The notes: generated by a model not told the origin, from the letters alone. A stretch of 53,866 bases of DNA from a virus (IMGVR_UViG_3300024908_000010:1-53866), one strand, 5' to 3'; positions 46,507-53,826 are shown, counted from the stretch's first letter. Made by a program: numbers and translations.

Positions 46507-47433
46507 ATGGAAGCAAATACAGAGTTAGCAGTACAGCAAGATTCTCAACTTAACACTATTGAGCCAAGTCGCTTGTCGTCACTGTCAATCATGAGCAGTG
46601 ATGACCACATGGCTAGAGTTACAAAAATAGCGAAGTTAATGGCATCAAGCAAAGTTAGCATTCCTAAACATTTGCAAGGCAATGAAGGTGATTGTGCTGC
46701 AGTTGTCATGCAATCAATGAATTGGGGCATGGATCCGTTCATTGTCGCCCAAAAAACACACTTGGTTGGCAGCACCTTGGGGTATGAGGCGCAGTTAGTT
46801 AATGCTGTTGTTTGTTCAAGCAAAGCCATATCTGGAACATTCAGCTATGAATATAAAGATGAAGTAGGCAGCGGTGCGTCTATGTCTGTTAGTTGCAGAG
46901 TAGGAGCGGTTCTTCGTGGACAGAGTGAAATCACTTGGGGCGAGTGGCTAAACAGTAATTCAGTTACCACTAAAAATAGTCCTCTCTGGAAAACAAACGT
47001 AAAACAGCAGATGAGCTACTTGCAGGTAAAAAACTGGTCAAGACTTTATGCCCCTTCTGCAATCCTTGGCGTTTACACATACGATGAATTGTTAGATTCA
47101 CCAATTAAAGACATTAACGCTGCACCGCCTCGCCCACGTAACGGCGCTGAATATGGTCGCCAAGCTCAAGAGCAGCAACAAGGCCGTGTAATTGATTCAG
47201 GCCAAGAAGAGCAACGCGCAGGATTGATTAACGCGCTTGAAGCATTTGCCGCAAAAGGCAGTGCGCCATTCTTGACCCAATGGAAAAAAACAGCGCGTGA
47301 AGAAAGAGTGCTTATTGGTGAGCCTGAATACCTAAGAATCTTAGCTAAAGCTGAGGAAGCAGACCTTAACCAAAAGCCTGCAGTTGATGCTGACTTTGTA
47401 GATCAAATGAACAAAACAGAGGCAGATCAATAA
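46507..47433 (+). CDS. recT: RecT-family single-strand annealing protein
   Basis: IPKHLQG..DC.AV.MQ..WGMDP..VAQKT..LGYEAQLVNAV..SPLWK..WSRLYAP..ILGVY. Confidence 0.9.
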   Translation: MEANTELAVQQDSQLNTIEPSRLSSLSIMSSDDHMARVTKIAKLMASSKVSIPKHLQGNEGDCAAVVMQSMNWGMDPFIVAQKTHLVGSTLGYEAQLVNAVVCSSKAISGTFSYEYKDEVGSGASMSVSCRVGAVLRGQSEITWGEWLNSNSVTTKNSPLWKTNVKQQMSYLQVKNWSRLYAPSAILGVYTYDELLDSPIKDINAAPPRPRNGAEYGRQAQEQQQGRVIDSGQEEQRAGLINALEAFAAKGSAPFLTQWKKTAREERVLIGEPEYLRILAKAEEADLNQKPAVDADFVDQMNKTEADQ

Positions 47434-48107
47434 TGTTTGAGAACCAGAATCTAATCAGCCCAGAGCAAAGAACCGAAGATTGGTACAAGGCGCGTGCTGG
47501 AAAGTTTACTGGCTCTCGCTTTGTAGATGTGTTAGCTAAAGGAAATAAGGCTTACACAGACCTAATCAATCAGATCGTAGTGGAGCGTCTAACCAATGAT
47601 TATATTGATACTGGCATGGATTCCTACGCGCTTAAATGGGGTCGTGATGTAGAGCCTTTCGCAAGGCAAGCATATAGCTTTTATACAGGAAACAGAGTTA
47701 CTCAAGCGCAGTTTAAAGACCATCCTGTTTATAGCTTTGTAGGGGTTTCACCAGATGGTCTTATTTCAGAGCAAAAAGGTGGATCAGAGTTTAAGTGCCC
47801 TAAAGACCCAAAAATTCACATTGACCGCTTTATAAATGGAATGAACGAAAAAGAGTTTATGCCGCAGGTTCAAGGTTGCATCTGGTGCTACGAGTTTGAT
47901 TGGTGGGATTGGGTGAGCTTTGATCCGCGAATGCCAGAGCACGCAAAGCTATACATACAAAGAGTATGGCGCGATGACAAATACATCGCAAATTTAGAGA
48001 AAACAGTATTAGTAGCAGAAGGTGAAGTAAGGGAAAAGCTGGATAAGTTCAAGCCAGAAACCATTGAAGCACTTTTAAATAATTACGACCAAAGGAAAAC
48101 ATCATGA
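47433..48107 (+). CDS. YqaJ / lambda-type exonuclease
   Basis: QRTEDW..RAGKFTGS, WG...EP.AR, SPDGL, EFKCP, QVQG, SFDPR. Confidence 0.92.
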   Translation: MFENQNLISPEQRTEDWYKARAGKFTGSRFVDVLAKGNKAYTDLINQIVVERLTNDYIDTGMDSYALKWGRDVEPFARQAYSFYTGNRVTQAQFKDHPVYSFVGVSPDGLISEQKGGSEFKCPKDPKIHIDRFINGMNEKEFMPQVQGCIWCYEFDWWDWVSFDPRMPEHAKLYIQRVWRDDKYIANLEKTVLVAEGEVREKLDKFKPETIEALLNNYDQRKTS

Positions 48108-49297
48108 ACGCACCATTACAAACAGTAGAAGCAGAAAAAATTGCTAGCCAAGAGTTGGTTACGCTAGACCCAAAAACTTACGTTGCAGCAGTATATGAGC
48201 CATTCAGTAACCGCCTACAGGCAGCGATTAAATCTTCATCAAAAGTAACTTATGCCATAGCAACTAAAGAAGGCATGGCAACGGCTAAAGAATGTCGCGC
48301 CCTATTCCGCACTATTCGCCTTGATTGCGATAAAGAGCGTGCAGCACGTAAAGCGCCAATTATAGCTATTGGTAAATTGTTGGAATCAGCATACACCGAG
48401 ATTGAAACGGCGGTTAAGGCACATGAAGAAAAGTTCGATGCAGACATTAAAGCAGAAGAGCAACGCCTAGAGGATGAAAAAGCAGCGAAGCTAAAAGCCG
48501 AAGAACAGGCAAAGGCCGCTATTCAAAACAAGATTGATGCCATCAAAAACAAGCCTCTTGGTGTGATGAATAAAACAGTGGCAGACATTGAAGAGGCTAT
48601 CGCGGAGCTATCACCGCTAATCCCTACACCTGCAGAGTTCGGTGAGCGCTTCATTGAGGCTGAATATGCACTTAAAGGTGCGCTGGAAACACTTAATAGC
48701 ATTCTAGCAGGCAAAAAAGCGCAAGAGCAGTTAGAGGCACAAAACAAAGCAGCAGAAGCGGAAGCGGCTGAACAGGCTAAAGAGGCTGCGCGTGTGGATG
48801 GCATCAAAGCAAAGATCCAGAACATTAAGAACTACATCATTAAAGGATCTGATTGTGACTTTTCTAGTCAGCTTGCATCGCTTGCAGAAGAGCTTGAACT
48901 AATCTCTATCACTGAAAAAGAGTATCAAGAATTTACCGAAGAGGCACTGGCCGCCGCATCAAAATCAATGCAGTTTCTATTGAAGCAAAAGGCTGTTTTG
49001 CTAAATACAGAACTTGAAGAGAAAGCCGCTAAAGAGGCCGCTGAAATCAAAGCGCGCCAAGAGCTTGAAGCGAAGATTATTGCAGAGGCTAAGAACGATG
49101 ACGGTGCTGTTGTTGACGCGACATTTAACGAATCTGACTTTAAGAATGTGTTTGCAGAACCAATACAGAAAATTGCAAACGCTAAGCGCCCTACTGCTCA
49201 AGCAATCATCGCCCTAGTAGCTACTACATACAAAGTTGAGGCAAAGACCGCAGAGCGTTGGTTGGCTCAATCGTTTGGTGAGTTGAAGGCGGCGTAA
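48104..49297 (+). CDS. Long coiled-coil phage protein
   Basis: 397 aa, Ala/Glu/Lys-rich, R...KAP motif. Confidence 0.7.
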   Translation: MNAPLQTVEAEKIASQELVTLDPKTYVAAVYEPFSNRLQAAIKSSSKVTYAIATKEGMATAKECRALFRTIRLDCDKERAARKAPIIAIGKLLESAYTEIETAVKAHEEKFDADIKAEEQRLEDEKAAKLKAEEQAKAAIQNKIDAIKNKPLGVMNKTVADIEEAIAELSPLIPTPAEFGERFIEAEYALKGALETLNSILAGKKAQEQLEAQNKAAEAEAAEQAKEAARVDGIKAKIQNIKNYIIKGSDCDFSSQLASLAEELELISITEKEYQEFTEEALAAASKSMQFLLKQKAVLLNTELEEKAAKEAAEIKARQELEAKIIAEAKNDDGAVVDATFNESDFKNVFAEPIQKIANAKRPTAQAIIALVATTYKVEAKTAERWLAQSFGELKAA

Positions 49298-49445
49298 TAA
49301 AACGGCGTGTAACTTCGAGCGTTCTTTATTAAATCGAAGTCGATTGACTGGCGTAAGCAGTCACATGAATTAAGCCGACTTTATAACGTGGCGCATCACT
49401 AAAGCCAATGCGTAGGCTACCTCACTGGGGTTAAGTCGGTTTAAT

Positions 49446-49580
49446 TGATGGGTAATGCGCAGGCTGATGCGCAAACGGTAACTTAGAGATAAGTGCTTAT
49501 AAGGGAGTAGGTTAATTTATTTAACTGCTATGTAAACGCGCCGAAGCACTGAGCCAGAAACACAGCACTGGTACCCATCA
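49446..49580 (+). ncRNA. Candidate structured RNA (cloverleaf-like junction with kissing loops)
   Basis: 9-bp closing stem, three internal stems, loop GCUG complementary to loop CAGC. Confidence 0.55.
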
Positions 49581-49602
49581 CCAATTTTATGAAAGGTAGA
49601 TC

Positions 49603-49875
49603 ATGGCTGATTTAACACTACACGTTAAACGTGAATATTTTGAACAAATGCGCGATGGCACTAAGCCAGAAGAATTTAGATTGTGCACACTCTACTGGAA
49701 AAAGCGACTTGAGAAGTATTACGACAACGTTGTTATTTGCCTTGGTTACCCAAAGAAAGATGACCAGAGCAAAAGAATTGTAAGAAAGTGGCGCGGTTCA
49801 GTTATTAAAACAATCACTCATAAACACTTTGGAAGTAATCCAGTAGCGGTTTATGCAATAGATGTTAGAGGTTAA
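49603..49875 (+). CDS. ASCH/PUA-like domain protein
   Basis: L.VKREYFEQM..G.K.EEFR...YW.KRL..GY. Confidence 0.85.
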   Translation: MADLTLHVKREYFEQMRDGTKPEEFRLCTLYWKKRLEKYYDNVVICLGYPKKDDQSKRIVRKWRGSVIKTITHKHFGSNPVAVYAIDVRG

Positions 49876-49877
49876 TC

Positions 49878-49958
49878 ATGGCAAAGCATAAAAAGGTAAA
49901 AGGCGGCGAACGCAAAAATCGCAAAGAGATTAGACGATCCAAAGGCCATAAGGTATGA
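49878..49958 (+). CDS. 26-aa Arg/Lys-rich peptide
   Basis: GAGG RBS, MAKHKKVKGGERKNRKEIRRSKGHKV, ATGA-coupled to the next gene. Confidence 0.5.
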   Translation: MAKHKKVKGGERKNRKEIRRSKGHKV

Positions 49959-50449
49959 AAAAGCAAAAGAAACGCACCAAAGCATTTAACCCTAACAAGC
50001 ATCGCATCAACAGTTTGGCAGGATTAAACGTGATTAAAAAGCACCAGCCATTAACGATAGATGAACAAAGAGAGTTGTGCCAAAGCGCAGTTACCTCACT
50101 CAATGCCATGCAGTTTGGAATAGACCTAAGCCCGAATGATTTTACGATCCTATGTGATGTTATCAATATCTCGCTAGTGTTTACTGAAAGAGGTCTAGGC
50201 AAAGAATATTTAGATGAATTGTATGCGGCGCGTGATGCTTTGCAGAGAAGCAAAATGCGTTTCTTAGACACTGGAAAGCTTGGATTTTTTGGCCCCGATT
50301 TAGACACTATGAAATTCGCACTTAAGGTACACAACTGGCAGTTAGAGCGTTGCAGCTTTGGAATGTTTGAGAGCGCCTACGAAACGCAAAATGCGCGTAT
50401 TAAAGCAGGTAATTTTTATAGAGGTGAAAGTGAAAGGTTAGCGGCATGA
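49955..50449 (+). CDS. Conserved phage hypothetical protein
   Basis: 164 aa, basic N-terminus. Confidence 0.7.
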   Translation: MKKQKKRTKAFNPNKHRINSLAGLNVIKKHQPLTIDEQRELCQSAVTSLNAMQFGIDLSPNDFTILCDVINISLVFTERGLGKEYLDELYAARDALQRSKMRFLDTGKLGFFGPDLDTMKFALKVHNWQLERCSFGMFESAYETQNARIKAGNFYRGESERLAA

Positions 50450-52436: not shown

Positions 52437-52613
52437 ATGAATTTACTAAAAACAGAAGAGACTGCGAAAAAGGTAGGCGTGTGTGTAGATCACTTTAGAA
52501 AGATCATCAAGCATCAACCAGATTTTCCAAAGCCAATTAAGCTTACGCCCAAGGCACACCCAAAATGGAGTGAAGAAGCAATTGAAGAATATTTAAAAAA
52601 GAAAGCGGCCTAG
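52437..52613 (+). CDS. xis: Excisionase / AlpA-family protein
   Basis: LL..EETAKKVGV..PDFPKPIKL..W....IEEY; convergent with integrase. Confidence 0.85.
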   Translation: MNLLKTEETAKKVGVCVDHFRKIIKHQPDFPKPIKLTPKAHPKWSEEAIEEYLKKKAA

Positions 52614-53581
52614 TCTAATTTTGAAACTAAATCACTTGCGGCTTTGTTGTAATAAACCAGCAACATTTTCAAATCTTTGTGACCGACAACGCGCGCCAAT
52701 TCAAGCACTTCTAACTTAGATGCCAGGCGCGTAATAGCTAAATGCCTAGTGTCATGGAAATGCAGATCGTCAATAGCAACTAGCTTCTTAGCCTTTCTAA
52801 ATAGACTATCAAGCTGGCTAGTATTGATATTAAATACATACGTTTTATCAAGCCCTTTGCACTGCTCAAGTATGGCCATCGCCGCCTTGCTCAAAGGCAC
52901 AGACCTAATGCCGGTATAAGTTTTAGAATCATTTATCTTCGCAACGCGATCATTTATATCTGACCATTTTAGATTGCAAATTTCTTGCGCACGAAAAGCT
53001 GTTTCAATTGCAAACATAAAAGCAGCACCAACTCGGCTAGTTATAGTAGTTAGAATTGCATTGTTAGAATAGTTAAGTGCAAAACATAGCCTGTCTATTT
53101 CGTCATCTGTAATGATTCGATCTCTAGGTGGCTGGCCTTGTGGCTTCTTTAGCCCTTTCATTGGATTATCTTTCAGGTACTCCCACTCAGTAATAGCAAT
53201 CTGTAAGCAATGACTTAATAAAGCCCACTCGCGTAACACCGATAAAGCACTAACTTCTTTAAGCCGCCTGTCGCGCCATTCTGCAAATGTATTCTTAGTT
53301 AAATCGCCTATCTTAATCTTGGCGACTTCATCGTTAAGAAACTTGTTGATGCGGATTGTTTCCCATCGTGAGCCTTTTTTCTTAACAGAAACTTCATCAC
53401 GGTACTTTTCTAGGAGCTTGCCGAATGTAATCGATGGCGTTTTATTATCTTTGCCAGCCTTAAGAGATTCCTCCCAGACGTAGCCTTCTGCTTTCGTTGC
53501 GAAAGTTTTTACTTGCGCCTTGTAATTAACAGTTACTTGAAAACGCCACTTGCCGGATGCGGTCTTTGTTACGTTGGCCAT
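52610..53581 (-). CDS. int: Tyrosine integrase
   Basis: ETAFRAQEI (R), SKT (K), HFHDTRH, VGH, LVYY (Y). Confidence 0.95.
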   Translation of the reverse strand: MANVTKTASGKWRFQVTVNYKAQVKTFATKAEGYVWEESLKAGKDNKTPSITFGKLLEKYRDEVSVKKKGSRWETIRINKFLNDEVAKIKIGDLTKNTFAEWRDRRLKEVSALSVLREWALLSHCLQIAITEWEYLKDNPMKGLKKPQGQPPRDRIITDDEIDRLCFALNYSNNAILTTITSRVGAAFMFAIETAFRAQEICNLKWSDINDRVAKINDSKTYTGIRSVPLSKAAMAILEQCKGLDKTYVFNINTSQLDSLFRKAKKLVAIDDLHFHDTRHLAITRLASKLEVLELARVVGHKDLKMLLVYYNKAASDLVSKLD

Positions 53582-53739: not shown

Positions 53740-53758
53740 TTTGGTGCGAAAGGAGAGA
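53740..53758. repeat. Right att core
   Basis: Identical to 715-733. Confidence 0.95.
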
Positions 53759-53826
53759 CTCGAACTCTCACGCCTTACGGCGCTGGAACCTAAATCCAGT
53801 GCGTCTACCAATTCCGCCACTCTCGC
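53742..53826 (-). tRNA. tRNA-Leu (anticodon TAG)
   Basis: 85-nt cloverleaf GCGAGAG..CTGGA-TT-TAG-GT-TCCAG, long variable arm, GTTCGAG, CCA end. Confidence 0.97.

Follow-up and report, generated by a model that had tools for sequence, protein, structure and literature searches.

Positions 49446-49583 on the plus strand of the virus record IMGVR_UViG_3300024908_000010 (IMG/VR; 53,866 nt, the whole of which is called the window here) are predicted to encode a tRNA-derived structured RNA, and the element concerned (49446-49580) is, as judged from sequence, a divergent member of a widespread phage RNA family. This assignment is based on the match of the window to R2, a covariance model whose 14 source sequences all come from GenBank phages and include neither the window nor any of its kin. 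The structural evidence for the family, obtained by comparative sequence analysis, is strong. The family is apparently undescribed: it is given no name by current tools (Rfam 15 and ARAGORN), and PGAP at best labels a relative as a pseudo-tRNA. The finding implies that many unannotated gaps in phage tRNA clusters would hold one conserved tRNA-derived RNA with a simple and testable architecture. Cultured E. coli, Pseudomonas, and Klebsiella phages are among its carriers.

Structure of the element and of its phage family

The element is closed by an acceptor-like stem formed by TGATGGGTA (49446-49454) and TACCCATCA (49572-49580). Within this stem, a D-arm-like hairpin (49456-49473), in which TGCGCA at 49456-49461 and at 49468-49473 enclose the loop GGCTGA, is followed by a variable central region of 79 nt at the position of the anticodon arm (49474-49552), which contains the arm AGTGCTT (49492-49498)/AAGCACT (49544-49550), and by a T-arm-like hairpin, GCCAG-AAACACAGCA-CTGGT (49553-49572), with the stem core CCAG (49554-49557)/CTGG (49568-49571). 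All of these features lie on the plus strand. The loop sequence GCTG at 49463-49466 is complementary to CAGC at 49563-49566, and a loop-loop contact between the two has been proposed. Directly 3' of the closing stem stands A-CCA (49580-49583), which the original prediction had not listed, followed by the AU-rich ATTTTAT. The stems and loops listed in the original prediction, which had described a cloverleaf-like RNA with kissing loops, were all found in place.

The minimum free energy (MFE) structure given by RNAfold for 49446-49580 is the cloverleaf (-39.2 kcal/mol, z -2.22), and 6 of 200 shuffled sequences folded as well; the reverse strand of the same segment has a z of -1.91. The cloverleaf is also the MFE structure in the context 49343-49596, and it is not part of the MFE structure of 49298-49610. 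Taken alone, the fold is modestly better than chance and only suggestive. That the predicted cloverleaf is more than chance is argued by the R2 match together with the covariation of the closing stem across relatives. R2 matches 49440-49588 (+) at full length (model positions 1-143) with 50.2 bits and an E value of 1.9e-11, and all nine tested pairs of the closing stem change on both sides across 16 sequences (14 from GenBank, the window, and allele E, one of the variants described below), with 44 cells changed on both sides in total. The covariation score is 0.323 vs 0.122 for shuffled alignments, none of 500 shuffles reached it, and slid controls gave at most 0.124. The cloverleaf of the original prediction is thereby corroborated by two measures from the relatives. 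The pair 21:30 of the D-arm-like hairpin is CG in 11 and UA in five sequences of the same alignment, and the pair 180:193 of the T-arm-like hairpin is GC in 13 and AU in two, namely the window and allele E (locus L026). R2 also scores 64.2 bits in allele E, 21.1 bits in allele B (locus L002), and 85.9 bits in an E. coli prophage.

The wider family came to light only with allele E as a blastn query. The search against GenBank phages detected the first hairpin in unannotated gaps of three phages: Alcaligenes phage CASP1, in which the module lies ~100 nt upstream of tRNA-Met and tRNA-Arg, Pseudomonas phage ZC08, in which it lies within a cluster of nine tRNAs, and Pseudomonas phage IME307. These three share a common plan, consisting of a closing stem whose sequence is different in each, the motif (G)AATGCG[C/T]AGGCTGAT[G/A]CGC, a variable stretch, and (C)ATGCCGGAGATCAGCACCGGCC, which abuts the 3' strand of the stem. 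A BLAST search with the ZC08 element returned 148 phage records; most of the matches cover the 3' motif (92-100% identity), and most fall in DNA that carries no annotation. Motifs of 19 to 25 nt are kept at 92-100% across these records, which come from several host genera; according to the first word of the organism name, 52 are Klebsiella, 38 Pseudomonas, and 31 Escherichia phages, and the remaining records include phages of Erwinia, Aeromonas, Burkholderia, Salmonella, and Xanthomonas as well as Stx2c-converting phages. Fourteen of the 148 records were fetched, and the R2 model and the counts of neighbouring genes given below are based on those 14.

In terms of RNA, the family plan consists of the closing stem, the hairpin AAUGCG(C/U)AGGCUGAU(G/A)CGC, a variable insert, and the hairpin GCCGG-AGAUCAGCA-CCGGC, which abuts the stem. 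The first hairpin of the window is identical to this plan. The last hairpin (GCCAG-AAACACAGCA-CUGGU) diverges from the family motif, GCCGG-AGATCAGCA-CCGGC in DNA letters, and retains the stem, the position without a spacer before the closing stem, and the CAGC of the loop. The closing stem ranges from 6 to ~20 bp across the family and the central insert roughly from 35 to 145 nt; the sequence of the insert is unrelated, and its length differs widely, both between alleles and between phages. The alignment shows a putative RNA core composed of a freely covarying closing stem and near-invariant D-arm-like and T-arm-like hairpins with complementary loops; the T-arm-like hairpin is stacked on the closing stem in the predicted structure, and a variable structured insert takes the place of the anticodon arm.

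The surroundings of the module were compared among the 14 loci. A tRNA gene lies within 400 nt in eight of them, always in the same orientation and in one case only 4 nt away, and no tRNA is nearby in the other six. The neighbours of the module in GenBank phages include tRNAs, holin, and other genes. In lambdoid prophages of Klebsiella and E. coli, the module is located between the Q antiterminator gene and the holin gene, with or without four tRNA genes in the interval (L045, 939-1258 and 1491-1632; L055, 1273-1414), a placement that corresponds to the leader of the late operon. Escherichia phage HC6 (L043, 1198-1233) and Klebsiella phage UPM 2146 (L044, 1246-1278) carry a short frame without a start codon ~170-200 nt upstream of the module, which starts with GCA AAC GAT and ends with GCG GCG TAA TAG in HC6 and with GTA GCT TAA in UPM 2146. 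This frame resembles the tag frame of tmRNA. The Rfam model tmRNA_permuted scored 27 and 22 bits in these two loci, below its cut-off of 47, and ARAGORN called no tmRNA in either phage; an unrecognised tmRNA-like RNA may be joined to the tRNA-like module there, as far as the sequences indicate.

The origin of the family was suggested by E. coli: of 5426 genomes, 733 contain a match to the version in Klebsiella prophages or to its upstream domain. Plasmids, some of them ~110-130 kb in size, hold 537 of the 780 matching places; these are 60-80% identical to the upstream domain (positions 1-123 of the query). In a prophage of NZ_CP104117, the same upstream domain is followed by a 115-nt feature (1347729-1347843) annotated by PGAP as a pseudogenic tRNA-Gly. 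It has the acceptor sequence of the HC6 module, a canonical D arm, an enlarged middle part, and a canonical T arm, and its T stem, GCCGG/CCGGC, matches the stem of the last hairpin of the module. Because a pseudo-tRNA with canonical arms occupies the homologous site, the family is considered to be tRNA-derived, its D and T loops having apparently been replaced by loops with Watson-Crick complementarity. The common loop pair is GCUGAU with AUCAGC. In the window's own group, the complementary loops are GCUG and CAGC in allele A (the window), CUGA and UCAG in allele E, and GCGA and UCGC in allele B, and the chance of such a 4-nt match is 0.09, 0.03, and 0.02, respectively, with alleles A and E perhaps not independent of each other. 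The five loop-loop pairs are 98.8% paired in the 16 sequences and nearly invariant, so that the covariation support rests on one allele (B). The loop-loop contact is therefore, on the sequences compared, likely but not proven. The tRNA-like shape and the D-loop/T-loop-like contact that had been predicted at the outset are borne out by the conserved core, the complementarity kept in allele B, and the canonical-armed pseudo-tRNA; as to covariation between the loops, the changed and still complementary pair of allele B speaks for it, while the near-invariance of these pairs in the family as a whole gives it no further backing.

The searches against known RNA families gave no name to the element. 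Rfam 15 at E ≤ 10 on the window region returned no family and no tRNA match at the element, and Rfam at E ≤ 1 on 14 related loci returned only tRNAs and chance matches; the question of whether this is a known Rfam family, which had been left for checking, was thus answered in the negative for any version of the element. ARAGORN found nothing in the window with introns allowed, and very lax settings produced scattered and inconsistent calls. As a candidate tRNA, the window sequence has no anticodon arm and no canonical elbow of a GG D-loop and a UUCRA T-loop, the T-like loop being AAACACAGCA. The literature search found no paper that prints either conserved motif and no description of the family. 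A catalogue of 10,006 candidate viral RNAs, in which tRNA-like candidates are mentioned, was published in 2023 (PMC10690425), and its supplements may contain this family.

The host phage, its allelic site and the neighbouring genes

The window is a temperate phage with the gene order CI-like repressor, RecT (46507-47433), YqaJ exonuclease (47433-48107), F0 (a 397-aa protein with no assigned function, upstream of the element), the 305-nt intergenic region holding the element, a 90-aa gene, small genes, integrase (52610-53581, minus strand), and tRNA-Leu (53742-53826, minus strand). The tRNA-Leu gene beside the integrase at the end of the record is 89-92% identical to the tRNA-Leu of several phages, and this end is probably the attachment-site region. 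A scan of the intergenic region for promoters and terminators found none. An upstream TTGACT was considered as a promoter element and dropped, since it is not conserved in the window's group, and a small peptide (MRRL...) in the first hairpin was dropped for having no usable ribosome-binding site (RBS) and a stem that covaries. No result supported an integron attC-like cassette, put/nut sites, or a riboswitch aptamer, all of which had been considered. One contig from an RNA library spans 49482-50064 and others 48946-49279; these are assembled contigs, which cannot show RNA ends, and 49296-49471 is uncovered, which says nothing for or against the element.

The window's own group, as found by pattern scans, comprises a few close relatives among viral and metagenome contigs. 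Scans of viral contigs for exact patterns yielded nothing beyond this same small group, a pattern scan of genome contigs for the region gave no match, and the 241 pattern matches of the F0 protein in genome contigs included no relative. RecT relatives are all below 60% identity. The blastn search of the window's intergenic region and of another variant, allele F, against GenBank phages gave no match. Within the group, the block 49362-49452 is 95-100% identical and is followed by ~80-155 nt of unrelated sequence and then by an identical flank, CC(C)ATCACCAATTTTATGAAAGG...ATG. At least six alleles of the middle part were counted (A in the window, B in L002, C, D, E in L026, and F/F'), the site compared being 49453-49573 in the window and its equivalent in L003, L025, and L030-L034; these alleles share at most the first ~21 nt of the middle part, and near-identical phages carry unrelated inserts between identical flanks. 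All alleles are predicted to fold into multi-branched structures closed by the same stem.

Allele F is represented by four sequences of 90-92% identity, in which seven of 74 predicted pairs are changed on both sides, GNRA loops stay GNRA, and several G.U pairs occur on the plus strand. The G.U pairs and GNRA loops point to a sense-strand RNA, and, on this comparative evidence, allele F is clearly under selection for structure. It is a well-supported structured RNA of ~165 nt without the family's two hairpins. Both hairpins are also missing in alleles C and D, and R2 gives no match at E ≤ 1 in any of the three. Since these alleles fall outside R2 and allele F nevertheless shows selected structure, the site tolerates other RNAs; from the sequences, unrelated RNA "cassettes" seem to be accommodated there while the flanks stay fixed. 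In contigs from a wastewater run searched with 49341-49607 of the window, the 5' domain (described below) was present at high summed depth, and loose ends of these contigs run into allele F, into an allele diverging after 49477, and into other downstream genes. One such contig joins 49364 to 49449, with the 5' domain seemingly absent or replaced.

The gene downstream of the element (49603-49875, +) encodes a 90-aa protein assigned to phrog_625, which is weakly ASCH/PUA-like. The original prediction had proposed this protein as a possible partner of the RNA, and this part of it did not hold. Among the 11 loci of the group that were compared, the element always lies 3' of RecT-(exonuclease)-F0 and is followed by five different, non-homologous first genes. 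Loci that encode more distant homologues of the 90-aa protein also speak against a general link: none of 19 was matched by R1, a model of the 5' domain, none of the five searched with R2 contained the module, and in 11 of the 14 examined the homologue directly adjoins the ORF before it (gap ≤ 13 nt). Because the element precedes five different genes and varies sharply between near-identical phages, a partnership with an ASCH protein is not supported, and the gene order points to the 90-aa gene as a neighbour of the RNA and not its partner. The AF2 model of the protein (pLDDT 91.2) resembles ASCH proteins best, with 3iuw, 2z0t, YqfB, and ZmASCH as the top matches; these matches are weak (Foldseek E 0.07-0.5, TM ~0.5), and VIA gave Z scores of 5.3-6.5 with an rmsd of 3-4 A over 76-82 residues, which is below the safe level of that tool. 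The protein matched no Pfam family at E ≤ 10, and none of its 28 homologues has a precomputed Pfam domain or an ASCH-type source name. An ASCH/PUA-like fold is thus plausible from the model and weakly supported. A 26-aa Lys/Arg-rich ORF (MAKHKKVKGG...) follows at 49878-49958, relatives of which are the first ORF after the element in L032, L038, and L039 and the second in L025 and L035.

Proposed working of the RNA and alternative explanations

We tentatively favour, with somewhat less than even confidence, the reading that the element is a natural tRNA-framed RNA that is excised by tRNA-processing enzymes and whose variable arm is the active part. The RNA would be transcribed within the early operon, would fold as a tRNA-like L in which loop-loop pairing replaces the canonical elbow, and would then be cut out by the host enzymes of tRNA maturation. 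The RNase P site would lie between U49446 and G49447; with trimming of the 3' end at the A-CCA that precedes AUUUU, a stable RNA of ~137 nt would result. The hypervariable central arm would be the working part and the tRNA-like frame a scaffold for processing and stabilisation. The 5' domain, which abuts the cut site, could pair alternatively with the 5' strand of the acceptor stem and in this way gate folding, or could be released as a second RNA.

The window matches a tRNA-type end, in which GAUGGGU/ACCCAUC (7 bp) and GCCAG/CUGGU (5 bp) form a stack and a discriminator A is followed by CCA. The processing-type signals of the window are U(-1), G1-C72, the 7 + 5 bp stack, A73-CCA, and the AU-rich trailer. 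It was reported that RNase P also processes the phage M3 RNA, the C4 antisense RNA, and polycistronic mRNAs (PMC11143913), that RNase E cleaves just after an encoded CCA (PMC2190699), and that E. coli processes and stabilises an engineered tRNA frame in which an insert takes the place of the anticodon arm (PMC3753655). The A-CCA after the stem is kept in all alleles of the window's group and is missing in all 14 GenBank relatives. Because no CCA is encoded outside the window's group and the stem elsewhere varies from 6 to ~20 bp, the 12-bp RNase P ruler and the encoded CCA are not features of the family, and the excision step is uncertain for the family as a whole.

A more far-reaching version of this proposal is that phages of many Proteobacteria carry a natural tRNA scaffold with a Watson-Crick-locked elbow, which is excised by the host and delivers a fast-evolving conflict payload such as an aptamer, a sponge, or a decoy, with the upstream domain gating the folding in some lineages. 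We consider this version doubtful; if it were true, the alleles would correspond, at the level of RNA, to hypervariable anti-defence genes. Should the arm prove to be a payload, the family would represent a new class of phage RNA effectors and a natural precedent for tRNA-scaffolded RNAs; if not, the family would still merit a model in RNA databases and would correct genome annotation.

About equally doubtful is the explanation that the 5' domain and the module are alternative mRNA folds, acting in cis as a leader or switch that controls the processing, stability, or translation of the variable gene cluster 20 nt downstream. In the region upstream of the element, the hairpin GACTG-GCGTAAG-CAGTC (49346-49362, +), whose pairs 18:32 and 21:29 change on both sides, is GGCTC-ACGTAAC-GAGCC in some relatives, and its position is taken in two variant groups (L002 and L032) by a tRNA-Met gene that abuts the conserved block; its 17-nt version GGCTCACGTAACGAGCC also occurs in Pseudomonas phage PS-1, ~99 nt upstream of the module. 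The 5' domain itself (~88 nt, 49364-49450, +) is predicted to form a P1 stem (49364-49381/49433-49450) around three short hairpins in a four-way junction, and it shares its final bases with the 5' strand of the closing stem. The 10 sequences of the domain that were compared are 95% identical, too uniform to show more than one covarying pair. PS-1 carries a domain that is built alike but differs in its P1 sequence; since R1 finds nothing outside the window's own group, this similarity is based on inspection by eye and the 17-nt identity. A 12-nt direct repeat (49407-49418, AATGCGTAGGCT; 49454-49465, AATGCGCAGGCT) places the start of the D-like hairpin a second time inside the 5' domain, and PS-1 carries ...AAGCGTAGGC at the equivalent position; the repeat could be a duplication or a shared binding motif.

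Alternative pairing is conceivable in that the segment 49440-49450 has two possible partners, the start of the 5' domain and the 3' flank, and the three segments change together in L031/L034 and again in PS-1 (UGCAUCGG/CCGAUGCA/CACUGCAUC), in which the two folds are near-isoenergetic (-98.6 vs -96.6 kcal/mol). In addition, different genes are preceded by a conserved flank that runs from the stem through the RBS to the start codon. These observations favour control in cis, but the two folds hardly compete in the window (-73.8 for the MFE structure with both domains vs -70.2 for the extended P1), the RBS lies outside any conserved pairing and differs in L030/L031, and the module of other phages precedes tRNAs or lies far from any start codon. 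A gating role of the 5' domain, as modelled from these energies, is possible but weakly supported.

It is unlikely that the RNA is a decoy or mimic, which is the idea of the original prediction without its ASCH link. In this reading, the frame would bind a factor of the host or of a rival that recognises tRNA-like shapes, for example a nuclease of a tRNA-targeting defence or an enzyme of processing or modification, and the arm would tune specificity. The tRNA-derived shape and the two hairpin motifs that are nearly invariant across host genera would fit a conserved recognising factor, and the fast turnover of alleles between near-identical phages, with more variants in other samples, would fit a conflict; moreover, phage tRNAs have been proposed to counter tRNA-targeting defences (PMC10264068). 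However, the module lacks an anticodon loop, the part that such nucleases usually attack, its elbow is rewired and unlike that of a normal tRNA, and no defence or counter-defence gene is consistently adjacent in the loci examined.

The hypervariable interior between conserved ends also recalls a trans-acting antisense or immunity RNA like C4 of P1/P7, an antisense RNA matured by RNase P (PMC11143913), which would be processed from the operon transcript and whose variable loops would set the specificity. This role is improbable, since Rfam found no match to C4 (RF01695) in the window even at E ≤ 10 and the 53.9-kb genome of the phage contains no complementary target of at least 14 nt, the best complementary stretch being 13 nt (E 0.16). 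It is likewise improbable that the element is a decaying pseudo-tRNA or a mosaic junction with no present function, whose structure was inherited from a tRNA ancestor: PGAP labels a relative as a pseudogene, the alleles differ wildly, and the site is the boundary between the RecT-exonuclease-F0 block and the variable small genes, but the sequence motifs are conserved across the 148 phage records and several host genera, compensatory change is found in every pair of the closing stem, and the derived, non-tRNA loops are themselves conserved.

Comparison with known systems

The excised, tRNA-framed RNA that we favour has counterparts among several known systems. Phage tRNAs and pseudo-tRNAs (RF00005) have the same order of acceptor stem, D arm, central arm, and T arm, the module lies in or beside phage tRNA clusters on the same strand, and the pseudo-tRNA-Gly shares with the module family the T stem GCCGG/CCGGC and the acceptor sequence. 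The module differs from tRNAs in its complementary D and T loops, in the insert of ~35-145 nt in place of the anticodon arm, and in a stem of 6-20 bp. The "species 1 and 2" of phage T4 are stable RNAs encoded within its tRNA cluster and are, like the module, small non-tRNA phage RNAs that sit with tRNAs.

Like the module, tmRNA and YrlA (RF00023 clan and RF02553) combine a tRNA-like end domain with a non-tRNA body, and the tag-style frame upstream of the module in HC6 and UPM 2146 adds a further likeness to tmRNA, with the Rfam model tmRNA_permuted reaching sub-threshold scores only in these two phages. The window differs in having neither a tag frame nor G3.U70 in the stem; ARAGORN calls no tmRNA in it, Rfam gives no tmRNA match, and there is no YrlA match either.

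The C4 RNA of P1/P7 and the M3 RNA of phi80 are small non-tRNA phage RNAs that are processed like tRNAs, as described in PMC11143913, and the module would be comparable to them in this respect; they differ in that they have no sequence or model similarity to it, and an antisense target was not found for the module in the phage's own genome. The engineered tRNA scaffold described in PMC3753655 keeps the acceptor stem and the D and T arms and carries an insert in place of the anticodon stem-loop, and its frame is recognised by cellular enzymes for RNA processing and protection. This scaffold is man-made and has canonical loops, whereas the module is natural, has a rewired elbow, and is presumed to be processed. 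The t-elements of plant mitochondria (PMC1920247) are likewise tRNA-like structures within transcripts, where they define mRNA ends; they are organellar and unrelated in sequence to the module, which combines a conserved core with a variable arm of its own.
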